A stretch of DNA of 64,000 nucleotides from Marsupella aquatica (Eukaryota > Plantae > Marchantiophyta): contig OZ316892.1 in assembly GCA_973895155.1 (NCBI GenBank), forward strand, positions 23,693,971 to 23,757,970. The letters are read 5' to 3'. A model generated the notes under the pieces. The model saw nothing but the letters and a program-made list of their open reading frames with translations. It did not search any database and was not told the DNA's origin. How positions within the stretch are numbered: the first letter of the stretch is position 1; each line of letters starts with the position of its first letter. The position numbers and the translations under genes are program-made. Shown here in pieces: positions 5,639-38,073 of the stretch.

Positions 5639-6682
5639 TTACACAGAATTATAGTCACAGCTCCACTTGTGTGCAATGCTCACGCAGCTGAGATAATGGC
5701 ACCAGTGGCATTTCTTCCGAGCATCAACGCCAGTGAAGAGGACGGCAGCGGCAGCCGCGTAGGCAACAACAACCAGAAATAATGCAACGACCCACATGAC
5801 CTTTTGCCCGCGGGTGTATTTCTTCTTCACGGGCATATCGTCATCTCTGTATCCAGCCGGCAGATTACCCAGATTCACCCACCCATACTGAGGTTTCACC
5901 AAAAGAACGAATCCCAGCAAGAATCCGGAAACGAAGCCACCAATATGAGCGAAGTTGTCCACATAAGGCATTAATCCAAATGCCAGATTGATGACAATGA
6001 CCACGATCAGTGTGGTGAGTGCTAAGCATCTGTTGGCGTAGATCGTCCAGTTGGTGAGCAGCTCGGACACAGTGGCACCTAGAAGACCAAACAATGCACC
6101 GGATGCCCCTACTGAGATCTGGTTTTCTGGAAGGAAGAGAGCAGACAGCAACGAACCGCCAAACCCGGCCAAAAGGTACACAATGCCAACTCTAATGAAG
6201 CCAAACTCCTGCTCTAGTCTGATGCCGATGAGGAGGAGGCCGAGCATGTTGGCTATCAAGTGAAACACCCCTGCGTGCAACCATATGCAAGAGACCAGAC
6301 GCCATGCTTCTCCATGGATCACCAGATAAGGTCGAAGGCCCCCCAATTTCTGCAGAGTCCTGGCAGATGGGCCGAGCATCGGGTTCTCGTTCCATGGCTC
6401 GAAGCCAAACCGTTTGAAGACGTGGGGCATGCACTTGCGTTTGGGCACCTCTTTGGGGCAGTTGTTGTAGTACATCACCACAATGAGCATTGCAATGTTG
6501 GATATCACAATTATGGGGATGAGGAACACAAATCTCCTCCGGTCTCTCTCGGTGGTAGGAACTGTGGCTGGTGGAGGTTGTGCCGGCCCAACCGGATATC
6601 CAAACCCTTTGTTGCTCAGAGTCCTCGCCCGGATGGATCCTGGGTTCTCCTCATCCGAATCATCATACCTTGCTGAGCCCAT
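5639..6682 (-). CDS. Rhomboid-like intramembrane serine protease (plant RBL1-7 type), single exon, 347 aa
   Basis: WR motif (GEAWRLVSCIWLHAGVFHLIANM), catalytic GASG Ser, catalytic His in AHIGG, plant RBL signatures ENPMLGPS and CHWCHYLSCV, and several hydrophobic helices. The ORF is uninterrupted from ATG to stop. Confidence 0.96.
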   Translation of the reverse strand: MGSARYDDSDEENPGSIRARTLSNKGFGYPVGPAQPPPATVPTTERDRRRFVFLIPIIVISNIAMLIVVMYYNNCPKEVPKRKCMPHVFKRFGFEPWNENPMLGPSARTLQKLGGLRPYLVIHGEAWRLVSCIWLHAGVFHLIANMLGLLLIGIRLEQEFGFIRVGIVYLLAGFGGSLLSALFLPENQISVGASGALFGLLGATVSELLTNWTIYANRCLALTTLIVVIVINLAFGLMPYVDNFAHIGGFVSGFLLGFVLLVKPQYGWVNLGNLPAGYRDDDMPVKKKYTRGQKVMWVVALFLVVVAYAAAAAVLFTGVDARKKCHWCHYLSCVSIAHKWSCDYNSV

Positions 6683-9600
6683 CGTCTGTCTTCTTCACCA
6701 CAATGCAAATACCTTTTGCAGCTCTTCCCGATTCACAACCGAGTCACTCCCCACTTCTCCAACAAATGCAAACTAGAGCCGCTCTCCTAAGCTTCCAAAG
6801 TCTCCAATGAGGCGAATCTGTCACAGCATTGCGACACCCCTGAGTTTCTCCGTCCGTCACACCCAAGGATTGGACAAATCTTTCCTATGGACACAGGGTA
6901 GGGGAACGAAAATGCCCCCAAACCGCCACAACTCCAATCCAATCAATGCGCTCCGATCATGAGCCAAATCGGACAGCTTCGTACAGGAACCCTGCCCCTC
7001 CGCCTAGCCAGACACACGACGACCAAGCATAGACACGCCAACTCGTTGGAAATCTTCACTCGTAGCTCTCTTAGGGTCAAGTCAATCCATCGCCGTCCCC
7101 CTTCCTCCCTCAAGCCGGCAGGGCAGTCAGACGCACTCCCTCTCCTCACAGACAGCGTGATAGCCCACGAGGACAATCAATGAGTTGTGCGTGTGTTACA
7201 TTACACGTTACGTTGAATGCAATGACTGCCCTGATGCGTTGAAACTCCTGTTCCTTCCCTTCCTTTCTTCCCTCCCCTTGACCCCTTCCCTAGTTCCCTT
7301 GCTGTGCATCGCCTTTTGACCAGCTTGGAAGGGGTACAGGACATACGACTTCAGAAGACTACAGGCAGCTGCTGTGGGGCCCCACTTTATTATTCATCGA
7401 AGAGAGCTCAGTCATCCTGTCATCAATCGGCTCTGAGCCTACTACCGGTACCGCTCCCTGTGCTGCTCCAAGATGGCAAGACCGGTGGTGGTGGCCCTCT
7501 CGCTGCCGAGTGCTCACTCTTTCACAGCTCAGCTGGGCTTATGATTCCCTGCTCAGGTGTTTCCCGTGTCCCGGAGAAGGGAAACAGTCAGACCCAAGCT
7601 CAAAAAAAGCTGGCGGACAAAAAAGCGTGCTCAGCTGATCTTCGCTGAGCCAATCTCTGCTGGTTAACTGGTGGAGGATCGATTGTGAGGCTCCAGAATG
7701 GGTGAGAGAGAGGAGCTGGACGACAGCCCAGCAGACCATTACCACACTCCACTGGTGCTCCACTGCTCGACCGACGATGGAGAGAAGACAGTGAGGACAG
7801 ATTATTGACGAGCGCAGCTCCAATAATGAATCAACGCTGGACGAGGAGGGCCTACAGACATCACTGATTGATGAGAGAAGTGAGCAACGAGCACCCCACT
7901 CACTCGCCCAGCTCGCCAAAAAGTTTCTGTCTCATCAATCCGGGCCAAAAAAGAGGCCCATGTCGATCAGAATCGATCGATTCTCTGCTCCCTGCCAGCA
8001 TGATTGTGCGGCTGTACTCGCAAATGGATCGACGTATTACTTTTCATGCGCTTTTTCACGCGGAGAAAGAGAGATTGCCGCAGGGCAAGAGTACAGAATG
8101 ATAATCAACGCGTTTAAACACATTTCTTTCTCCCGAAGAGAGTTCTTTCGTCGCGAAGCTTGCCTCTTTTTAGTAGTAGTCAATCCTCGCTTGCTTTCCG
8201 GGCAAACTATCTTCGGATGAAATCCGCGCTCGCGCTGTCGAGTTGTACTTTTCAAGTAACCGAGCTGCCCCAGTTTTATTTACTCCCTGCCCGCCCCAGT
8301 TTTATATTTACTCCGTAAGCAATTACCCCCTGCCCGAATGTTACGACGTCCAGTTTCGCCCTGCCCAGCCAACCATGATGATCCTTTTCGCCCTGCCCGA
8401 TCAATGATGACGTTTTTTTAGGCTCCACCAAACCAATCACGATTCCTTGTCAACTGCCCAATTTAGTGCCTTACTACTGTAGCTGAGTCAATTCCTTATT
8501 TTTATTTCTTTACCCCAAAGTGATATTCTTTCTTTTAGGCTTACATTAAATTATTTTGGTTTTTTTTCATTTATTTACTTCGTAACAAATGTATTGATTT
8601 CAATATAAATTGTTTTTTTTTCAATTCTTGAGCATAATTATAGAAAGTATGTCAAATGGTGCTTCTCAATAGGAAAGGCAACAACCAAGGTAATATATTA
8701 TGGTCATGGAAGTGAATGTTGAATTATGACGTTTTCTTTCATGACGATCCAATCATTATTTATTTCATGCATATGTAATCGACACAATCTCTACGTGATT
8801 CACCTCTTCTCCAAGGCTACGTCCACACAAACGCTCAAGTTTTACATCAAGGGTAAACGAACACACATGAGATGTATTATTAACATTTTGCTTTCAAGGT
8901 TTTATCATAAACTAACTAATGTATACTAGATTGATTCTTATTATAATTTTTGTGATAAAATTTGATGCTCCATAAATTGTCTTATTAAACCCCTAATTGA
9001 TCCCACATTATTTTCTTTATGTGAGAATATAATGTCTTTTTATACTTCAAATCTGTTTAGAAACTTCATAATGCAATTGAGGGTGTCAATATTCATGATT
9101 TTTCCTTGATCAAGCATGTTTTATCGGTATTACATGGATTTATGTATTGAATAACTTGATATATATCAGATATGCTAAAGACACTCCCTCGATCTATCTC
9201 TATAAAGCATTTTTCATGCAAAATGTGTGAATAGCATCTTTACCTAACTTGGCCTTGATTGGGTGTTATTCTTGACTACTTATATGATCTCTCTGGTCTA
9301 GTAAGGGTATGGCAAATCTTGGGCCGTATTAAGATTAGGAGTAAGTTTTTTTTATCAAAAACACGTGTACAAAACAACTAGTTATAAAATATATTATGAC
9401 AGTGATACATATATGTTATCTCCATTCCTACATAAGATATGTAGTGTATTAATATATATGGGGTATTTACAAACGACAGGAAATAGCAAACAATAACAGA
9501 AAATAGAAACTGGTAATAGGGAAATGAGCGATAATTTCTTTTGAATTTCTTTTGAATTATTTTTTTTGCCAAAAAAATTCTATTGCCAAAAATATTTTTT

Positions 9601-10639
9601 TGCTTGCGCCCGACGCTGGTAATGCTAGTGCTCAAAGCTAACCAAAAAATGTTGTCGGCAATTTTATTTTTGAAAAATGTGATTTTTTAGAAAATATTTT
9701 TACATTATCATTTTTCTGGTACCAATAAACCTGTTTCTTGTTTATTGTTTATTGTCACGCATATCATACCCGTATATACTAGATATACTCCTCATTTGAC
9801 TCCTACATACATGTAAGCAACCATGAACCCAAGTGTTAGTGTTGAAAATGATCTACAAGGGAGTGATTATAACCATGTTGCATCAAAGGTTAGAAATATG
9901 GTTTTCAATTGTGCATATACTTACCGACCCCAACTCGTCCTGCATGTGAAGTTTCAGAGCCCGCGTTCCAAATTTCTTAGCCAACTCTCTCTCAGGTGGC
10001 AAGATTGGGCGTCCATGCTCTCGCTCCTGCACCATACTCAAGATAATAATTAACCCCCCTCCCCGGCAAATGAGAATAAAATTGAAACCTCCCATTACTT
10101 GAAATACATTATTTTAAAAGTTAATCCCTACCAAATCCCCCACATTACTTAATGAATAATAATCCCTACCTAGCCTCACACATTACTTAGAAAAATTCCC
10201 TAACACCCCCACATCCCTTTCAACTCATGGGTATCACTACCCACTCTACCTATATAAAATACTCCCTTATTATCGTGGCCTAACTATCGCAAAAAGCAAC
10301 GACAACCTAAGCCCGGCACTCCTTAAAAAAAACAAACCCCCCGGCGTGGCCTAAAACAGTCAAATATTCAAAATTTTGAATTTTTCCGATGCTTCCCTAA
10401 TCGGACCCCTCCACCCTAAACCCCAAAACCTAAGGTCCGATGCAGGGTCCGATTCTCAGGTAATCGGACCATAATCGGAAGCCTTGCGTCCAAAACCCAT
10501 AAGAGAGAGTCCCACTCCATTTCCGACTCTTCAGCAATCGGAATAGAATCGGAAATAGAAAAAAATAAGGACACATCAAAACTTGCGATACAGGCTCGAT
10601 AACAAATGCACAGGGATAAGAGGGGAGGTCTGGGAGGAC

Positions 10640-11837
10640 TTATGCAGGCATAGCCAAGGTTGTGCCTGAGGTGATCAGGGAGAGGGAGGACCCAATTTCA
10701 AGGTGAAAATTCAGCAAGGAGGCAAGCAAGGAGGAGGGGAGCATAGGACTTACAAACTCTGCTTTGAGAGGATGCGCTCCACCCTGCCCCATTCGGTGAG
10801 TAACTGCAGGTCTCTTCTCCACCCTCTCAATTGCATTTTGAATGTAAAGTGGAGGGTCTCCAAGCAGTGCTAATTTGGCCTCCCATTCCATTAAGTTTTG
10901 CTGCAGGAGGGGGATGTCAACAGTCTGTCCTGAAAGGACCCTCTTCTCTGCCTCATCGAGCTCAGCCTGCCAGTGACGTCTCGCTTGCCAAGCACGAACC
11001 TGTAGCTCAGCATCAATCCAAGCAGACCAGGCATCAGCTGGTATCTCATCCGGGGGATCTCTCTGCCTGATCACCTCTGCCTCCTCCTTACAATCTGCCA
11101 GGTACTTCCTCATCTTTTCTCTCACATTATTACATCTATCTGCAAGTGAACGTGAGATCTTCTTATTCAGCCATCGATCATCCAGGAAGCAGCCATTACA
11201 GAATCGCTCCTTCACTTGCTCCCTTGCTTGAAATTTATCCTCTTCTTTCTTCTTCCCCCAGTAGTCTAAGGGGCTGAAATTTGCCCTCAACACCTGCCCT
11301 AGCTGACTTCTGAACAAATTGTAGCTCTTTGTCATCGGAGCTCCTCCCTTATTAATGAACAATTTTGGCCGTTTGGCCCTTTCCTCTGCTCGTAGCCTCT
11401 CTTCCTCAATCCTTGCCCTCTCTGCAGCTCGAGCCTCCTTTCTAAGCCTCTTCTCTCTTTCTTGTGGTGAGAGGGCCTCCACTGGCCTGCCTTTCCTCCT
11501 TCCTCTTTCTTTTTTTCTCCTTTCCTTTCTCTAGCCTCTCCATGAAAGCCTTCTCTGCTTCACTTATGGCAGATTGCCTGGATTCGTCAATCAGGCCCTG
11601 GGTCAATTGAGCTGCTATGGCCGCAGCTTCAGCAGACAGGCCTGCTTGCCTCTTGAAAATCTCTGCCATAATGTCCGAGATCTGCTGTGACGGCCCTGCT
11701 CCATCTCCACCCACCCTGGCTGCTCCGTCTCCTCCCCCCCCAGCCGTGCCATTCCCCTCCATAGCCTCGACCTCCAATGCGTGCTCCTCCACTTTGTGTT
11801 CACTCAGCAGCTCCTCCCAAGTTGCATCCGAAACCAA
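10640..11837 (-). pseudogene. TnpA-like (Ptta/En/Spm, Transposase_24-like) accessory protein of the CACTA element, one frameshift
   Basis: Two overlapping ORFs (11442-11837 and 10640-11482) are joined by a frameshift in an A/G-rich tract near 11490. Features include charged coiled coils, PPDEIPADAWSAW and VTHRMGQGG (resembling the H-x-x-G-x-x-G motif of TnpA-like proteins). A splice donor GTAAGT lies at about 10753. The family assignment is by motif resemblance only. Confidence 0.55.
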
Positions 11838-12815
11838 GCCCGATACAAAGACATTCGTACTTTAGTCGGGAAAAGTACCAAACCCTATTGTGCCCTCCAT
11901 CCGATTTTTTAAGAATCGGAACATCCGATACTTGAACTATCGAAAACGGGATCGGAAATAGCGATGCTTAAAGTATCGGACCCCTCTTCCAATATGATCG
12001 GACTTAGCTTGTCCATTATTTTTTATGCCTTTAAGGATGGATTTATAATAAGTTAGTCGATGGGGGGGGGCTGGGGATGTGGTAAGGAAATGTAAGTTTA
12101 GTTGATGTGAAAACCTGCATTGTAATTGTAGGCCTGGTTGAGTAGCCGGATTTTGTTTGGGCGGTGGGGTTCTTGAATAAAAGCCGGTTATAGGTGCGGT
12201 AACGTCCCCCTTACAACAACATACTTTTGGGGTTGAACGGTATGATCATTGACCCACTCACATTAAAAGTTTTGACAAATTTGTCCACCTTGTATGTGGA
12301 TTTAATTTTGGGGGCCAAACAAAGTTAACCTCATGTGCGTGTATTGTGCAGTATTTTTTTGCGGAGGGTTGGGTCGTTCTCTTTGTTTGTATTTTTGTAG
12401 GTCCATTTTTGCAATGCATTATGCATCGCGATAGGCCATGCATCCGAAAGGTATGATATACTCCCTTTATCATTTGGAGGTGAGCACTTTAAGTATATAT
12501 TTGGCTAAAGTTTTTTCATTGATGGCCACAATATATAGTGGATATGATTCTATGGGGACATATGTATAGATAAATTCTGATGGTATTCCTTTAATTGTGC
12601 AGACATTTCGGATATTGTCTTAGCATATATTCTAAGGCCAAGATCCTAGTAGGCATTGTTCAGTGCGGATATCATTTAGGTAAGATGCACAGTCATTATT
12701 TTTAATTATTCGCTTAGTGTAAACTAGGTTCCAATCTTGACATATTGTATTTAGGGTACTTAATATGAGTGGGAAAGATTTTTGACATGTGATTAATTTT
12801 CACATTGATGGGCAG

Positions 12816-13054
12816 ATGTCAAATTCTGGGAGTTCCGAGTCAGATTCTGACTCGGACTCGTCATCTTCTGAGGGGGACATTCCTCCCCCCCCCCCCCTCG
12901 GAGGCCGCATCATCCTCCTCCTCCTCTAGGCCCCATTCCATGTTGGTGTGTGCGATGTAAGGGAATGGTGGTTCGTCAAGCTTGGGAGTGTATTGAGCAT
13001 ATTGAGAATTATGGGCAACACCAACCTGATTTACCAGAACATTCAGCTCACCAG
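12816..13054 (+). CDS. First coding exon of the CACTA gene: acidic/Ser-rich leader plus transposase-associated Cys/His domain; frameshift in a C13 run
   Basis: ATG at 12816 reads MSNSGSSESDSDSDSSSSEGDIPPPP. Adding one C to the homopolymer continues RRPHHPPPPLGPIPCWCVRCKGMVVRQAWECIEHIENYGQHQPDLPEHSAHQ, which fits the CxCxxC...H...G pattern of the EnSpm transposase-associated domain. The exon ends at a phase-0 donor CAG|GTATGC (13054/13055). Confidence 0.7.
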
Positions 13055-13172
13055 GTATGCACCCCATACTCTCATCCCATACATTTCAATGAAGGAAACA
13101 TAATTTGCCACTTACAATCATGACCACTATCATCATATATTTATTAATTTTGGATTTTTTTTGAATGAATAG

Positions 13173-14132
13173 GTGCCCCGTAGGCCCCCTCCTCCATTGA
13201 TCTCTAAAGAGCTATGGCTAGACACATTCTTGGCTAGTGCAAGACGGATGCTTGCATCAACATCTACACCCCCTCCTCCTGCCCCGTGCCCCAATGGTGA
13301 GGGCGGGAGTGTACCTGTAGCAAGGGTGGAGGACATTGAGCAAGGTGACCTGGAGGTACCTCCATCTAGGGTTTTACGCACCGGCCCACGCTCCCATAGG
13401 CATAGGAGACATTATGAACCATTGGGCACTCGTGAGTCTCAAGACCCAAACTTGGTAGGTCCGCCTATGATGAAGCCAGGTGAGGGTTATGTGGTAGTGG
13501 AGGGTAGGTTGGGATTGTCATATCTCACTGGAAAGGCGTTGCCTCTTGTGAAGGACTTCTCGTCTGAGATATTCAAAATCCCTCAAGGCATACCCACTAA
13601 TGCCCCTATAGAGATATGGGGCCGTCATTGGATAGTGCAGTCATCTTCCCTTGGTGTTGATGTAGGATTTGGGTTATTTGCTTTGGAGGACATTGTGGTC
13701 CATCCAAAGCCATGGCGAAGAGGTTATGATGGGGAACACTTATTTCCTTATATTGGCCCTATATACACTGCCAAGAATTGGAACATTATTTTACGGCAAC
13801 AACCATCATGGGGAGTGTATGCATTGCAAATGGATTCCGATCCGGATGAGGTCCTCAAGAGGCCTTGGCATTGTAGGATGATTGATGGTGATCCTGTGCG
13901 ATGTGATAACATCGCTGGGTATATCAATAGTACCAAAGGGAGAGGACGAGGACTTCAATCAAATGTAGAGTGGGTTCAGATTTTTGGGGCACCGCCACCA
14001 CCTTACTATGTGAAGCATATGGATGACCATGTTATGACTGTAGCCATTAGGACTATTAGGGCTGGTGAGGAACTCTTTTGTGACTATGATTGGAACGCGC
14101 CTAAGATGGCCATACGGTGTCGTCCTTCATAG
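13173..14132 (+). CDS. SET-domain protein exon inside the CACTA element (putative lysine methyltransferase), 319 codons, intact
   Basis: SET motifs appear in order: VGFGLFALEDI (motif I), PYIGPIY (YxG), IDGDP..NIAGYINS...NVEW (motif III variant) and AIRTIRAGEELFCDYDW (motif IV). A T-rich acceptor ...GAATAG| at 13172 precedes it. Confidence 0.88.
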   Translation: MPRRPPPPLISKELWLDTFLASARRMLASTSTPPPPAPCPNGEGGSVPVARVEDIEQGDLEVPPSRVLRTGPRSHRHRRHYEPLGTRESQDPNLVGPPMMKPGEGYVVVEGRLGLSYLTGKALPLVKDFSSEIFKIPQGIPTNAPIEIWGRHWIVQSSSLGVDVGFGLFALEDIVVHPKPWRRGYDGEHLFPYIGPIYTAKNWNIILRQQPSWGVYALQMDSDPDEVLKRPWHCRMIDGDPVRCDNIAGYINSTKGRGRGLQSNVEWVQIFGAPPPPYYVKHMDDHVMTVAIRTIRAGEELFCDYDWNAPKMAIRCRPS

Positions 14133-14319
14133 CACATACAAACATGTGTATATGTTCACTTTTATAAAAATATTACTTGAGTCATTCTCTAATTGGTTTC
14201 AAGAGCTATGGAGTCTTTTGACTCATTCATATATGGATGTCTCAATTGTTGGTTGAGAGACCTGGACTTATATCATTCTCATTGTTTTCTTTTGTGTATG
14301 ATAGAATGCATTTGTTCAG

Positions 14320-17300
14320 CCAGATATTGAGGTATTATCACGAGCTGTGCGACAACATCTCCTTCAGGCCATGGATGGTAGGCAAGGGGGTCAACCTTTT
14401 GAGGATATGGACATTCCACATGAACTACCTAATGCTACCCAAGAAAGAGTGGATGAGGACCGGGCTATGGATGAGTTGATGCACCAATTCATGGATGCAG
14501 ATGAGGGTGATCCCCGGGGTGATCATGACCCAGGTGACTGGGAGGACATTGACTTACCTCCTCCTCATAGGCATACTCCTTCACGGAATTGACACTTGCA
14601 CCAGTGGGAGGAGGCTCAAGAGCATGCACGGACTCGTCTTTTTGAGGGGTCTAGATTATCTCGTCTTTCAGCAATCATGTTATTACTGAACTTGCAGCAA
14701 AGACATGGAGCAAGCAACTTGCTTCTTGATGATATTTTCAGGACATTGCATGATCGTATGTTACCAGAGGGGAATAACTTGCCAGCATCATGGAAAGAGG
14801 CAAAGAAAGTGTTGAAGTCCATAGGCCTCAAGTATGAGGTCATACATGCTTGTGTGAATGATTGTGTTTTGTTCAGGAAGGAGCACTCAAATGCTCTTAC
14901 ATGTCCTGTGTGCAATGCGCCAAGATATCGTGAGGATATGTTGACAGGAAGAGTACCTCAAAAGGTTATGAGGTACTTTCCCCTTATTCCTCATTTGCGT
15001 CACCAGTTTCGATGTGCAGAGTTGGCTAAGTATATGGTATGGCATTCCCAACACCGTTCAGACACTACTCAGGATCCAACCATGCGCATGATGGTTGACT
15101 CTCCTGCAAACAGATTTGTGGAAGAGCGTTGGGGTGAGTTCAAGACTGACCCTCGTCATGTTCGCCTTGGTTTGGCATCAGACGGCATTAGCCCATTTGC
15201 ACTGGCCGGCAAGGCCAAACCATACTCTGTATGGCCAGTAGTCCTCACTAACTACAACATCCCACCATGGATGGCCATGAAGGAGGGTCATTTGCTCCTA
15301 TCTATGATTATTCCTGGCCCTAAGCAAGTGAAGAAGATTGATGTATACTTGCAACCGTTGATTGAGGAGCTACAGAAACTTTGGGGGGGAGTGGATTGCT
15401 ATGATGGTCGAGTGCATACAGGGGGCTTACCCCGTGAGTTTCAGCTCAAAGCCATTCTTATGTGGACCATGCATGATCTTCCAGGTACCCAACTCTTTAT
15501 AAATTAAGTATGGCTTGTGCAGCTACCCATATATATATATATCGTTCTGTTTATTTTTTTTCCCTTTGGTTTGGTTTCAAAACTTAATGGGTTTTAATTT
15601 GTGACCATTGTTTGTGAAGGGTTTGGATATATTTCTGGCTTGCAAACTTCTGGATATCGTGCTTGCCCAACTTGTGGACCAGACTTGGAGGGAGTGGCAC
15701 GCCCAAAGTCTACCACCCTGCGGAAGATAGTTTACATTGGTCACACAAAGTATCTTCCTGAGGGGCATGACTGGAGGTATGATCCATTTTTGTATGACAC
15801 GGATGAGGGCCAGCCAGACACAAGACCTCAACCTTTACCGAAGGACCCAATATATTGGAAGGAGGTATGGGAGAGGGTGACTGATCCAGATGACCCATTA
15901 CCCTTGGGTAGATGTGGCATGACCCGTTTGTCTGCATTGGCACAACTTCCATATTGGGAACACATGCCGATAAATCATCTATTGGACCCTATGCATATTG
16001 AGGGGAATGTTGGGAGGTCATTGATCCGCCATCTATATGGAGAGAAAAACAACAATTGGAGGGAGAGTTGTGAGGAGATGGGGATGCATGGCCTTCATGG
16101 TTTTTGGCCATCTATGGACCCTGACCCTCCCCTTACTATCCATCCCCCATGGGTTTTCACAAGGAGTGAGCGAATAGAGTTTCGCAAGCGGATAGGGTCA
16201 ATGCGGTTTCCTACAGGGTATGGTGTCAATCTTCGCAAGGCATTTAGTGGAGATGACTCTCCAAAATGGCCAGCTTTCTTGAAGACCCACGATTATCATC
16301 GTCTATTGCAGCACGTTATTCCAGTTGCTATTATTGGATTGGGCAGCGAGGATCTTCGGGATGCACTTTGGTCATTGGGTAGATTGTTGAGATGGGTTTG
16401 TCAAAAGGAGGTCAACGAGGGAGAGATTGCTGCCATGGAGGTATTTGGAGTGGAGGTTGTGTGCAAGTTGGAGCGAGCACTCCCTCCTTCCTTCTTTGAT
16501 GGTCAAGTTCATTTTCTTGTACATCTAGTGCGTGAAGTAGCCATTGCAGGCCCAGTACATTGTCGTTGGATGTATTGGGTAGAGCGATTCATGGGAGTCA
16601 TGAAATCATATGTATCAAACCGTGCTAGGGTGGAAGGTAGCATTGCCGAACGTCACCTTGGAGCAGAGAGTATGTTCTATTGTACGAACATTGTGGCTAC
16701 ACTTGATCCAAATGCTCCAAGGGGTTGGATAGATGAGTCAGCACGAGAGGCAGATTATGAAGAGGATAGACTCACTGGAGCAAAGGGAGAACGACTACTA
16801 GGCTCTGCTGAACGTGTGCAACTCACCACATTCATGTTGTATAACTCACCAGAGATTGCAGGGGAGTGGACTGCATTTTATGAGGAGGAGAAAAGTAATA
16901 GTCGTCGGCCACGCCTCTTCCCCAAGTTTCTCCCATATATGAAGGAGAAGTTGACAGAGATTGATGCCTTGTTGGGTCAGGGTGAGAGTGTTTTGCACTT
17001 TCCGAAGGTCACCAATGACATTCGCACCCTTGTTCATGGTCCATTACTCATGGTCACGACTCGAACAGCCATGTGGTCAAAGGGGAGGCATTTTCGAATC
17101 CAACATCTTGATATGAAGAGAGCAGCAACACAAGATTGTGGGGTGATGGGGTGGTTCACCCAAGAGTCACAAAGTAGCACTTCTGACCGGAATCCAATAC
17201 GTTCAACTGTGGCCCACTATGGGAAGATAGAGGAGATTCTTATCGTAAATTATCATGCCCATACAACCTTGGAGGAGGTGGTGTTCAAGTGCAAATGGTT

Positions 17301-17574
17301 TCGGATGAATCTTGTTGGCCATAATCGGACCTGTGAAGAAGATGCATGTGGGTTCACACGATTGAAGACCAGTGCAACTAGTGTTATTAGTTCCAATTGG
17401 AGGACCTCAGATCCATTTGCATTTCCCCATTATTTGGAGCAATCTTTCTATCTTCCTTATCCGAATGACCCAGAGTGGTCCATTGTTATGCCTTACATCC
17501 CTCGCTCACGATCCATTGTTCAAGACAAGCCAAGTGTAGTTGTAGTAGAGGATTTGGACCCCTCATTACAATAG
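14320..17574 (+). pseudogene. EnSpm/CACTA TnpD-like transposase (Transposase_21, DUF4218, DUF4216), one in-frame stop at 14590-14592, intron 15485-15619
   Basis: Motifs IHACVNDCVLF..CPVCNAPRY, RLGLASDGISPF, YSVWPV..NYNIPPW, IDVYLQPLIEEL, HDLPG|FGYISG..ACPTC (across a GT..AG intron), DPMHIEGNV, KTHDYH, PPSFFD..HLV..GPVHCRWMYWVERFM and YGKIEEI..FKCKWF..DPFAFP. Confidence 0.96.
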
Positions 17575-18374
17575 ATGCGACCTAGGTAAAACCCCTATAT
17601 GTTTTATCTTCATGGATATCATATACATTTTGTCATGTCATTTCACACATGCCCAAAGATTCATTGGTTGGATATAATTTTGGATACAACTGTATATAGT
17701 CCCTTGACACAATCCAAATTGCAATCCCTAAGTAATATATGCATTTGAGTTACGTCCATTTATTCTCGATACCATTTCCCATGCTTAAAATAACGGAAGC
17801 CCATCGGAACACCTCCTTGTTCAAATCTTGACCTCGAACCACATATATCCGATATAAACCCTTTCGGACTCCATTTCCGATTCTTGTAGCATCGAACTTA
17901 TTTGTGATACACACTACTTCGGAAAACATTTCGGATACCCAACCTATCGGAAGCACTAAGCAATACATTTTCGATCGCAATATTTCCGTAATTTACTCAA
18001 TCGGACATCAAATGCGATACTTCAGGGATCGGAAATTTAGTAACAATTTTTAGAAGAGGGGTCCGATAGTCAAGACATCGGATATGTTCCGATATTAGGA
18101 GTATCGCAAATTATGTCCGATATTTTGGAAATCGGATACTGTGTTTCCGAAGCTGTGGGGATCGCAAGTTCCGATATTTTTGTGAACAAAAGTTTGCATA
18201 ACTCTGGCTATCGAACGCCTATTTCATGTTTCAGCGGGAGCATCGGAAAATGAGCAAAAATATACTAGTGAGTGTGCTCATTTTCACTTTATTTAGAGTA
18301 TCCCTTTGTACTTTCCAAGAGGGCATGGATCGATGTCTAGGCCCTTGGATCAAGTGCCTATAAGTATGCTAGTA

Positions 18375-18535
18375 CTATTCATAGTTGGTGAAACTATTAT
18401 GCGTACTTGGTGGAATTATTATGCGTAATTAGTGGAACTAGTATGTATAGTTGGTGAAACTATTATGCGTAATTGGTGAAACTACTATGCATAGTTGATG
18501 AAACTATTATGCATAATTGGTGAAACTACAATGTA
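18375..18535. repeat. Minisatellite of about 22-bp units (TTGGTGAAACTATTATGCGTAA-like) just outside the CACTA right end
   Basis: About 7 diverged copies of GGTGAAACTA(T/C)TATGC. Confidence 0.75.
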
Positions 18536-26866: not shown

Positions 26867-29800
26867 TGTGGTAAGCATTTTAAATGAAACTTTTATAAAA
26901 CATATATTAGAAACTCGAATTCGTTCCCGTAAGGAATAAAGGAAATCAACTTATGATGGTATTAAGGTCTTTGAGATCTTTAGGAGTCTCTCTCCTTACA
27001 CAACTACTATGTATTACTCAAAATATTTATGATCAATCATTTTAATATGGAAACTCTCAGACTATCGCTCCTTCTCAATAGAAGTTTGATTTTCGTTCCA
27101 GTGGTGGCCCTCCCACCACGTGCCCGTCCAAACTCGTTTCTCAGTCTTGAAAGAAGTCGAACCTTGCACTAACACGGAATGTTGGGGTAAGTTCTCCCCG
27201 ACTATACTCCTCGTCGTTAGCGACCCCTCCCATACGAAGCCGCACTTGCCCTCGTCAGCACAACCGTCACTCAACGGTCTTTGCTATCTGCACAAGCAAC
27301 CAACCAACCGGTAAGAACTTGTCTTGATCTCGGAACTCCCAAGACCATTGTCTTGCCTCAAGCTCAACAGTCGTTAGTAAGTAGGTCAGCGGATAGAGCC
27401 TCCCAGGCCCGCATGGCCTTGCCATAAGCTGAAACTAAGGTCGACATCACTGTTCGTCCAGAACAGTCTATCTATCGGATGTCGTCCAAGCTTCCCCACT
27501 TTCTACCCGTCAATGGCTGAACGCCCTGCCTCCAAGACATGCCCATGGCCCAAACTCAGTTTGTCACAAACTAGTAGTAACACGCCGGGACCATTCAGTT
27601 TCTAGATCTTAGCCACCTCTCTGCGAAACCGGGTTCCGCTCGACCTCTCACCATGCATCGGGACCAGATCTCAATGGCAGCCCCCAGAGTCTACTTGGTT
27701 CTACCTCTCCAACATCAGGTCCTTGTGGGAACCAAATGCGGTTTGGTCATTGTTCGACTTCGGATCGGCAAGAGGGACTCCCCCATTGCAAGCCTCAAAA
27801 CCAAAATCATCCAATGCACAATCAGAGAGCGCCATAAGGTAGCTTGCTTCATTAGCTTTCCAACGAGCCCAAGAAATCCCCCAACGGAGATCCGGTCGTC
27901 GAGTTATGTTTGTTTCCGCTTCAAAACTCGAAACGACGTATCTTCGTCGATCGCGATCAGCTCGAGCTCAAACTTGAGAGGACCACTCCCCTCATATATG
28001 CTTCTGGGGACCTGCCACCCCCGGACCAGCTTTGGTCCCCTATCTTTGGCCCCCTACCCGAGGGTCCGTGGGCCCCGCCACTTAGCTCGAAACGAAGATA
28101 ATCGAAAACCTTCCGTAACTTGGCCTTGAGCGCAAATTGTGGCATAAGGGGCTAAAAGTTACGGCCCTAACCCCGCTCTGGTCCAGGCAACCCCCTCTTG
28201 GTCCATTGATGCGCAACGACTCTAATCGAGTCTAAATCGACCATAACTTTTGGCCCCTAGGTCCGTTGGCCAAAAAATATGCGGCCCCATGATCGGGCTC
28301 ATGTGGGGCTTCTTGGGCCCCTATGGTGATCCGTTGGAAAAATAGTTCATTTTTCCGTGATCGGCGATGGGCCCAAACTACAAGTATGCGACTTGAGTTG
28401 GCCATAACTTTTGGCCCTTGGGTCCGTTGGCCGAGAAATATGCGGCCCCATGATCGGGCTCATGTAGGTCTTCTCGGGCCCCTATGGTGATCCGTTGAAA
28501 AAAAAGTTCATTTTTCCGTGATCAACAACGGGCCCAAACTACAAGCATGCGGCTTGAGTCGGCCATAACTTTTGGCCCCTGGGTCCGTTGGCCGAGAGAT
28601 ATGCGGCCCCATGATCGGGCTCATGTGGGGCTTCTTGGGCCCCTATGGTGATCCGTTGGGAAAATAGTTCATTTTTCCATGATCGGCAACGGGCCCAAAC
28701 TACAAGCATGCGGCTTGAGTCGGCCATAACTTTTGGCCCCTGGGTCCGTTGGCCGAGAGATATGCGGCCCCATGATCGGGCTCATGTGGGGTTTCTTGGG
28801 CCCCTATGGTGATCCATTGGAAAAATAGTTCATTTTTCCATGATCGACAACGGGCCCAAACTACAAGCATGCGGCTTGAGTCGGCCATAACTTTTGGCCC
28901 CTGGGTCAGTTGGCCGAGAAATATGTGGCCCCATGATTGGGCTCATGTGGGGCTTCTCGGGCCCCTATGGTGATCCATCAGAAAAATAGTTCATATTTCT
29001 GTGATCGGCAATGGGCCCAATAAAGTTAATTGGAGCGCACTTCTTGTCCTTGCTCTTACTAGCCTCCTCTTTGTTAGTCGCATCCCTAATGGCTATGATG
29101 GTAGAAAATCTAAGAGGGGCTCAACGCTGGAGTTAGGCAACACCGAAGCAATTACGAGTAGGTGAAAGTTGTATTCGCGACTGTTCCATTCCTAAATTCC
29201 TTATACTCAACAGAGATCGGCTTTATATTAGGAATTTCACTACAATTCTCTAAACTCTAGATTTCAGAGCTTTACTCATATTTTTCCATACAAAACCAAA
29301 GAAACATTTTCTCAAAATGTATTCATTCATTCCAAGGTTTGCAAGAAATGCACGAGGAAATCATGAATAACAGTAGAATTTGGATGGTGCATTTTCTCAT
29401 TTCTGCGATTCTTCCTCCTAAAGCCCAACCTGGCATGAGGAAAAGACCCATACTGGTCACAAATCGTTTCCAGAGAAAATGACAAGGCAATTTTGCTTGG
29501 GAGTTCAATTGTAATACTCCCTCATAGATCAAAGAGATTTGAAAAGATTACTTAACTACCTAAAAACTAACTATTGATTAAAGATCTGAAGAGGTGAGTA
29601 GCTCTAGCTACTTTTCTAAGCTAAGATTCCTAATGATAGCTAAACTAGTTTAACTAAGCTAAATTCTATCTAATGAGCTCAATTTAGGAAAAAGGGAGAG
29701 GGAAAACGGTTTAAGAGAAGTTGAATCAAAATCCAACTAAAAACGCTTGAACAATTCTTCCAACATAAAAGCAATTGTCAATTAAAAAGGATCCTTCAAT

Positions 29801-33727: not shown

Positions 33728-34061
33728 GTTCAAGCTTGGCGGACCCAAGTATGAAGTGACAAAGTATGATGGGCGCTCTGACTACTTGCTCTGGGAGAAG
33801 CAGGTGAAGGGAGTGCTCTATGCTTCATGTGGTAAGCATTTTAAATGAAACTTTTATAAAACATATCTTAGAAACTCGAATTCGTTCCCGTAAGGAATAA
33901 AGGAAATCAACTTATGATGGTATTAAGGTCTTTGAGATCTTTAGGAGTCTCTCTCCTTACACAACTACTATGTATCACTCAAAATATTTATGATCAATCA
34001 TTTTAATATGGAAACTCTCAGACTATCGCTCCTTCTCAATAGAAGTTTGATTTTCGTTCCA
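33728..34061 (+). repeat. 334-bp copy of 26767-27100 (100 bp of Copia gag plus the first 234 bp of the LTR)
   Basis: The 100-bp gag part is identical to 26767-26866. Two mismatches were counted in the LTR part. Confidence 0.93.
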
Positions 34062-37403: not shown

Positions 37404-37968
37404 CAACACAACATTTTTTTTCCCAACAACCTCTTGGCTGACACAACATCTTTTTCTCTCAACAACCTCTTGGCCAACATGACATCTTTTCTCTCAACAA
37501 CCTCTTTGCCGATATGACATCTTTACTCTGGATGACCTCTTGGCCGACACGACATCTTTTCTCTCCACGACCTGTTGGCCGACACGACATCTTTCTCTCC
37601 ATGAACTCTTGGTCGACACAACATCTTTTCTCTCAACGACCTCTTGGCCGATACGACATCTCTTTTTTACCATGACCGATTGGCCGACATGACTTCTTTT
37701 CTCTCCATAACCTCTTGCCGACACAACATCTTTTTTCTCCATGACCTGTTGGCCGACACGACTTCTTTTCTCTCCACGACCTCTTGGCCAACACAACATC
37801 TTTTCTCTCAACGAACTCTTGACTGTCACGACATCTTTACTCTTGACGACCTCTTGGCCGACACGACATCTCTTCTTTGCACAACCCCTTGGCCAAAACG
37901 ACATCTTTTCTCTCCATGATCTCTTGGCTGACACGATATCTTTTTTTCTCAACAACATCTTGGCCGAC
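37404..37968. repeat. Minisatellite, about 35-bp unit, about 16 copies (ACACGACATCTTTTCTCTCCACGACCTCTTGGCCG)
   Basis: Units start at about 37404, 37441, 37477, 37512, 37547 and so on to 37931. They are head-to-tail with no unique spacers. Confidence 0.95.
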
Positions 37969-38073
37969 AAGGCTTCTTTTGTCCAACGCATGGGTATTGA
38001 GCTAGTAAAACAATATAATATAGCCTGCTGCATGGTCCTAGATCTTTTCCCGGTATCCTAGGTGTGGAAATCC

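Follow-up and report, generated by a model that had tools for sequence, protein, structure and literature searches.

A likely family of bryophyte CACTA transposons in which a SET exon and the transposase are predicted to share one likely zinc-binding exon

We analysed a stretch of 64,000 nucleotides (nt) from the liverwort Marsupella aquatica (GenBank assembly GCA_973895155.1, contig OZ316892.1, positions 23,693,971 to 23,757,970 of the forward strand), hereafter the window, whose coordinates are used throughout. The window contains a decayed copy of a likely bryophyte family of CACTA transposons, in which an exon that encodes a SET domain lies between exon 1, which encodes a likely zinc-binding domain (hereafter the finger), and the rest of the transposase. 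The family is also found in liverwort genomes and likely in those of mosses. We put at about 0.72 the probability that both predicted junctions of exon 1 are used, through an alternative 3' acceptor and terminal exon, giving either a finger-SET or a finger-transposase protein.

The expression of such an element could be described as follows. A single promoter upstream of 12816, head-to-head with a divergent accessory gene, would produce a pre-mRNA in which two acceptors compete for a single donor. Splicing of 13054 to 13173 would yield finger-SET, with cleavage probably in the spacer behind the SET exon; without this cleavage, the finger-SET mRNA would have a long 3' untranslated region and a downstream intron, and would likely be a target of nonsense-mediated decay. 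Joining 13054 to 14305 or 14320 instead would leave SET out and yield the full transposase. The balance between the two acceptors would determine the amount of chromatin writer relative to transposase. The first-pass annotation of this DNA had proposed mutually exclusive splicing. The shared exon and the two acceptors are well backed by the anatomy compared across relatives and by liverwort gene models of finger-SET, but strictly the pattern would be that of an alternative 3' acceptor and terminal exon, not of mutually exclusive cassettes.

Anatomy of exon 1 and its two acceptors

The predicted unit is composed of the following parts.

12816-13054, + strand: exon 1, with an ATG, a Ser/Asp-rich and Pro-rich leader and a CxCxxC..C..H motif; frameshifted at the C run
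12885-12897, + strand: run of 13 C, at or near the exon 1 frameshift
13055-13172, + strand: intron predicted between the donor and acceptor 1, 118 nt, GTATGC...AATAG, phase 0
13173-14132, + strand: SET terminal exon, closed by a stop of its own; a conserved helix, a linker of low confidence and the SET domain (PF00856)
14133-14304, + strand: AT-rich spacer, which ends in acceptor 2 (GATAG/AAT) and in which the poly(A) site of SET would lie
14305-15484, + strand: transposase exon 2, with an alternative in-frame acceptor at 14319, a TGA at 14590-14592 and the Tnp2 domain
15485-15619, + strand: predicted transposase intron 2, phase 1; PF02992 is split over two open reading frames (ORFs)
15620-17574, + strand: transposase exon 3, with the remainder of Tnp2, DUF4218 and DUF4216

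The frame of exon 1 that carries the Cys/His motif, with CWCVRC at 12941-12958, ends exactly at the donor CAG/GTATGC at 13054/13055, in phase 0. Inspection of the sequence confirmed the coordinates and the frame that had been claimed for this exon. The motif is likely the N-terminal zinc-binding domain of a CACTA transposase. Exon 1 of the window has zero matches in Pfam, and PF13963 matches two relatives weakly, below the cut-off (E 0.011 for L009 and 0.031 for P0195); the PF13963 label for the window thus derives from these weak matches together with the motif. The exon 1 profile picks up the N-terminal motif of other transposases, and among the matches listed, 65 of 120 long transposase relatives have CxCxxC within their first 160 residues. 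In the window, the motif is found upstream of SET only, and the Tnp2 transposase ORF lacks the usual N-terminal Cys motif.

Acceptor 1 (AATAG/GTG at 13172/13173) opens an ORF of 319 codons that stops at 14132 and scores above the Pfam cut-off for SET (PF00856, 29.7 bits, E 9e-7). Both the coordinates and this match agree with the earlier description of a SET exon entered in phase 0 and closed by its own stop. There is no early Met after acceptor 1, the first being Met26. The coding sequence is conserved from the acceptor onward, ahead of any Met of the window, where VPRRPPPPLISKELW matches Calypogeia, P0002, P0005 and P0008. In all five SET exons that were aligned, the stop comes directly past the last motif.

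For acceptor 2 there are two candidate sites, both of phase 0 and in the transposase frame. The first-pass annotation chose TTCAG/CCA at 14319/14320, whose phase and frame are correct, but it overlooked GATAG/AAT at 14304, which lies 15 nt upstream, right after a U-rich tract, and is preceded by an AG-free stretch of 44 nt compared with 14 nt for 14319. The site at 14304 is more likely, since the CATAG/AAT of the relatives matches there (AAT being window 14305) and since the U-rich tract and the longer AG-free stretch favour it. The TAG at 14304 is itself an in-frame stop, so in-frame acceptors farther upstream would be unable to reach the transposase. As in Tnp2-type CACTA/EnSpm elements, the downstream ORFs match PF02992 (Tnp2), DUF4218 and DUF4216; the closest transposase match is a model from Riccia sorocarpa (54%). 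There is no early Met after acceptor 2 in the window, and conserved coding sequence starts at this acceptor ahead of any Met: PDIEVLSRAVRQ has a weak match (E 0.023) in Riccia PDFEILPRRLRQ. An alignment of the window with the N-terminal transposase stretch of L003 reached E 0.06 only and did not cover the acceptor peptide.

The copy itself looks dead. It has three lesions, namely the frameshift at the C run, the TGA at 14590 and a split of the divergent ORF into two frames. The frame of the ATG at 12816 hits a stop shortly past the run of 13 C, and a second in-frame ATG is found at 12965. The length of the run had been ascribed to decay or to an assembly error; with three lesions, decay is a sufficient account, while an error is still conceivable, as none of the contigs listed from four public runs bridges the run. 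The in-frame stop at 14590-14592, which the first-pass annotation had passed over, makes a transposase from this copy impossible at any length of the run, barring an assembly error there. At position 13038 the window has A, while all the listed contig depth of the four runs has G, so the window copy or its assembly has private changes.

Conservation among relatives

A scan of metagenome contigs, for which the SET alignment served as query, turned up 23 loci (L001-L023), with SET sequences 33-47% identical to that of the window. L002-L023 are mostly copies of one family, 85-96% alike, and L001 represents a second family at 73%; the comparison therefore amounts to about two families and the window. 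Between element families SET is about 40% identical and synonymous sites are saturated. Wherever a contig reaches, the order is divergent ORF, finger exon, SET and transposase, the exceptions being truncated copies such as L016. In each of the 11 loci where it is visible, the donor is of phase 0 and reads GTAAGT or GTATGT. Exon 1 keeps a single frame between ATG and donor in nine of ten whole loci and is free of stops in five of the ten. Of the 18 loci with upstream sequence, a count that omits five loci starting inside SET, 15 have acceptor 1, TAATAG, immediately ahead of the SET frame; it is disrupted in L006 and L017, and L021 uses another in-frame AG. Of 15 testable loci, 14 have acceptor 2, CATAG/AAT, in frame with the transposase; it is mutated in L011, and the contig of L001 ends just past this same motif. 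The phase-0 acceptors, whose conservation across copies had been put forward as a check, are thus kept in most loci. Intron 1 is 118 nt long in the window, 111 nt in L001 and 117 nt in L009, and its last ~17 bases are nearly identical between the window and L009 despite a synonymous divergence (dS) >2.

The ratio of nonsynonymous to synonymous divergence (dN/dS) shows that the SET core and the finger are under purifying selection between families. The SET core has values of 0.23-0.29, and the finger half of exon 1 stands at 0.29; a value of 0.13 for the window and L009 is affected by saturation. Among copies of one family, dN/dS scatters around 1 in the 12 pairs listed.

Four public runs (X1-X4) contain this DNA, and their contigs were compared with the window. 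Both introns are crossed unspliced, and GT..AG is found in none of the 15 joints listed out of 18; these runs behave as DNA and are uninformative on splicing. Divergent siblings among these contigs keep exon 1, the acceptor 1 region with SET, and the acceptor 2 region with the transposase, and differ between these parts. Their joints run from 13049/13064 to 13148 and from 14093-14138 to 14295-14301, where homology resumes.

Gene models and competing explanations

The closest named SET match is a model from Calypogeia fissa (61%). This model, P0001, starts at a Met equivalent to window 12965 and reads ...PGYSAQQ followed by VPHRPLPPFISKQVW, which corresponds to the join of 13054 to 13173. A search of the full library gave 143 SET relatives, which were checked with the exon 1 profile; four match at E <1e-6 and seven more weakly, and CxCxxC precedes SET in four. 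Besides Calypogeia, the finger and SET are joined in Riccia models and in one Logan protein; the ten proteins looked up comprise seven Riccia models, two Logan proteins and one fern model. In Riccia, the neighbouring tags R1sor_015799 and R1sor_015800 correspond to a finger-SET protein and to a transposase without finger, respectively. The junction to the transposase is supported indirectly, in that the motif is the usual N-terminus of a transposase, that, by a weak match, conserved coding sequence starts at acceptor 2 ahead of any Met in the window, and that the phase is kept.

Several observations weigh against the use of both junctions or against an active product. The finger-SET joins of Calypogeia and Riccia are gene-model predictions, and among the 120 long transposase proteins listed, a close join of this family's finger to the transposase occurs in none; the best exon 1 profile matches among them belong to other families (E 3e-4). 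Parts of SET are fused to the transposase in four Riccia models (P0039, P0040, P0219 and P0238). The loci of moss type have a Met 4-8 codons past each acceptor, so separate starts are possible there. A canonical poly(A) signal is absent from the spacer, which has only the non-canonical TATAAA at 14163-14168. In the SET protein, the His of the NH motif is replaced by Ser in 108 of 112 motif matches (172 proteins examined), the domain lacks a post-SET domain, and its identity to any solved SET is 18-22%.

Some of these points would fit two genes in tandem, in which SET is the sole splice partner of exon 1 and a transposase without finger is made from its own promoter or from a short exon in the spacer or the SET region. 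Every gene model seen joins the finger to SET and none joins it to the transposase, Riccia P0035 is modelled with a start of five residues, and the moss-type loci have a Met close behind acceptor 2. However, the spacer is AT-rich and only ~140-250 nt long, the window and 14 of 15 loci have acceptor 2 in phase 0 relative to exon 1, the early Met is replaced by Val or Ile in the window and in P0035, and CxCxxC is the motif with which transposases usually begin. We regard this arrangement as quite unlikely.

The converse, in which exon 1 is spliced to the transposase only and SET either starts independently as a nested gene or is reached by rare mis-splicing alone, could draw on the Met found 4-6 codons past acceptor 1 in the moss-type loci and on Met26 of the window. 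Yet the gap between donor and SET is only 118 nt, the first Met of the window, Calypogeia, P0005 and P0008 comes after a conserved helix, and acceptor 1 is kept across saturated divergence, all of which makes a nested SET gene very unlikely.

The Riccia fusions raise the alternative of an internal cassette, with a donor within SET that joins finger-SET to the transposase in a fusion like SETMAR. SETMAR/Metnase is a domesticated host fusion protein with SET and transposase in one locus, whereas in the present mobile family SET and transposase are predicted to be made as alternatives. The four fusions cover different stretches of SET (profile positions 87-230, 169-279, 43-164 and 72-129), and hence join at differing points. 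No good phase-0 donor is conserved within the five aligned SET exons, all of which end in a stop, and a weak search by word index for longer SET fusions found none in 3087 candidates. We consider an internal cassette highly improbable.

That SET is a neutral captured cargo with phases fitting by chance is barely credible: two acceptors would both fit the donor in 1 of 9 cases in a single element and copies do decay neutrally within a family, but purifying selection between families largely refutes it and the same layout is found in liverwort models and moss-type loci. The precise integration had earlier been held to argue against random cargo; the phase match of a single element is weak in this respect, and the case against chance comes from conservation across diverged families, to which the dN/dS of the SET core adds.

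The SET protein, its parallels and the remainder of the element

The predicted structure of the SET protein has a helix [12-28] and a domain at about residues 105-307, both predicted with confidence, and between them a linker of low confidence. In comparisons with Foldseek, SETD8 and LegAS4 rank first, at 18-22% identity, with NSD, MLL, G9a and ATXR5 close behind; SET proteins of giant viruses score at similar levels. The motifs GxG, YxG, Asn, GEEL and the terminal Tyr are nearly invariant in the SET alignment and align to solved SET chains. SETD8/KMT5A, LegAS4 and the giant-virus proteins share with our protein a minimal SET fold without a post-SET domain, but identity is low and the scores to many SET classes are nearly equal. 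In LegAS4 the motifs GxG, YxG, N and GEEL..Y align, and the His of the NH motif is missing in both proteins. The residue two before the terminal Tyr is small in 87 of 88 matches, at a position which we take to be the F/Y switch and which may allow multiple methylation. Catalytic activity is plausible. Distant relatives of the SET family include P0268, P0269, P0272, P0275, P0277 and P0278. In P0272, a model from Adiantum nelumboides, an SH3 domain of a Tf2-type retrotransposon stands ahead of SET, an order of domains that hints at SET on long terminal repeat (LTR) retrotransposons of ferns.

What finger-SET would do is more weakly founded. It may be an active lysine methyltransferase that the finger recruits to the element or its transposition complex, and its methylation of histones there would work against silencing or help transposition; we consider this possible, a little short of even odds. 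That the finger directs SET to the element or to this complex, as also suggested earlier, is a guess. The broader picture of an old bryophyte CACTA lineage in which a splice choice puts the same finger on the transposase or on its own histone lysine methyltransferase, as an enzymatic form of anti-silencing or self-regulation in land plants, is doubtful and somewhat unlikely.

Related designs are known. In the accessible part of one report, En/Spm and the Arabidopsis EN/SPM3 and EN/SPM7 are described as one unit alternatively spliced into TnpA and TnpD (PMC13547354). The present element resembles them in its CACTA-type Tnp2 transposase and in the prediction of two proteins from one unit, but its second predicted product is a SET protein with the same N-terminal finger as the transposase. 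Furthermore, the possible counterpart of TnpA is here a separate head-to-head gene, while the split Arabidopsis families are described there as head-to-tail (PMC13547354). The parallel to Spm drawn earlier is thus a loose one, which holds for the transposase type and the two-product design but not for the possible TnpA-type partner. Among red algae, Plavaka elements of the EnSpm superfamily carry an accessory SET gene, PAG2, with a proposed role in chromatin (bioRxiv 10.1101/2025.02.11.637652). By its description in the accessible text, PAG2 shares with our case a SET domain on an element of the EnSpm/CACTA superfamily, but it is a separate gene with an adenine-methylase domain on elements of 17-19 kb and without a described sharing of a transposase exon; the SET ORF of the window carries PF00856 alone, with no N6-adenine methylase domain. 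HarbingerS, oomycete MuDR and Helitrons are likewise cited, in the portions available, as DNA transposons with accessory SET genes, and differ in superfamily and host (PMC12730594; bioRxiv 10.1101/2025.02.11.637652). VANC of VANDAL elements, for which the same sources in part describe experimentally proven anti-silencing by a transposon protein that alters the chromatin of its element, is a possible functional analogue; VANC is not a SET protein, and the present element is known from sequence. A survey of 64 CACTA transposases from flowering plants describes, in its accessible part, no SET exon of this kind (PMC4158355). Our literature search found no publication on a bryophyte CACTA element with SET or with sharing of the finger exon, although Repbase Reports and closed supplements could hold such families. 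SET cargo on transposons is therefore already known; exon sharing with the transposase we found nowhere in print.

Among the systems cited, as far as their accessible texts go, VANC proteins are the only proven self-targeting anti-silencing proteins. With a selected SET family wired to exon 1 of a transposase, it becomes possible to ask concretely if plant transposons write histone marks on themselves, and the liverwort and moss-type elements belong to lineages with tractable models. The poorly understood transposase-associated finger gains a testable function; if the proposal is true, it would be an address module that delivers a chromatin writer to the element's own copies, tuned by splicing. 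Moreover, some annotated 'SET genes' of bryophytes are parts of transposons.

The remainder of the element comprises the following features.

10640-11861, - strand: divergent accessory ORF, in two overlapping frames here and in a single frame in L022 and L023
17800-18270, no strand: right subterminal cluster of ATCGGA/TCCGAT repeats, which ends in TAGTG at 18266-18270
10378-10552, no strand: second ATCGGA/TCCGAT cluster, downstream of the divergent ORF
~11827-12002: third ATCGGA/TCCGAT cluster

The divergent ORF is conserved between the window (10640-11861, - strand) and L022 (386-1615, - strand); it contains a THRxGQGG motif, directly after which a donor is conserved. It has no match in Pfam, an Atlas lead connects it to PF03004 at 0.84 only, and later exons of the gene taken from moss-type loci have no match in the window. 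It is possibly a TnpA-like partner gene. The subterminal short repeats are present in both orientations, as in CACTA/EnSpm elements, and TAGTG at 18266-18270 is the probable right end. A scan of the window for terminal inverted repeats and target site duplications found no left repeat matching TAGTG and no credible pair of ends with a 3-bp duplication. In L007 and L009, CACTA is the precise point at which homology begins, to the left of the divergent ORF, which indicates that all the parts belong to one element.

Other features of the window lie outside this unit. An apparently intronless gene for a rhomboid protease of 351 amino acids is located to the left of the element [5639-6694, - strand], and a tandem array of ~7 x 22 nt is found just past the probable right end [18376-18533]. 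Further tandem arrays are seen at 28237-29020 (4.9 x 161 nt) and 37406-37988 (16.7 x 35 nt). An inverted repeat of 69% identity (21625-22138/25090-25580) flanks ORF fragments and is possibly another decayed element. Two pairs of direct repeats, 26767-27100/33728-34061 (334 nt, 99%) and 29183-29936/34056-34809 (754 nt, 97%), adjoin at 34056-34061 and possibly represent an LTR split by an insertion.

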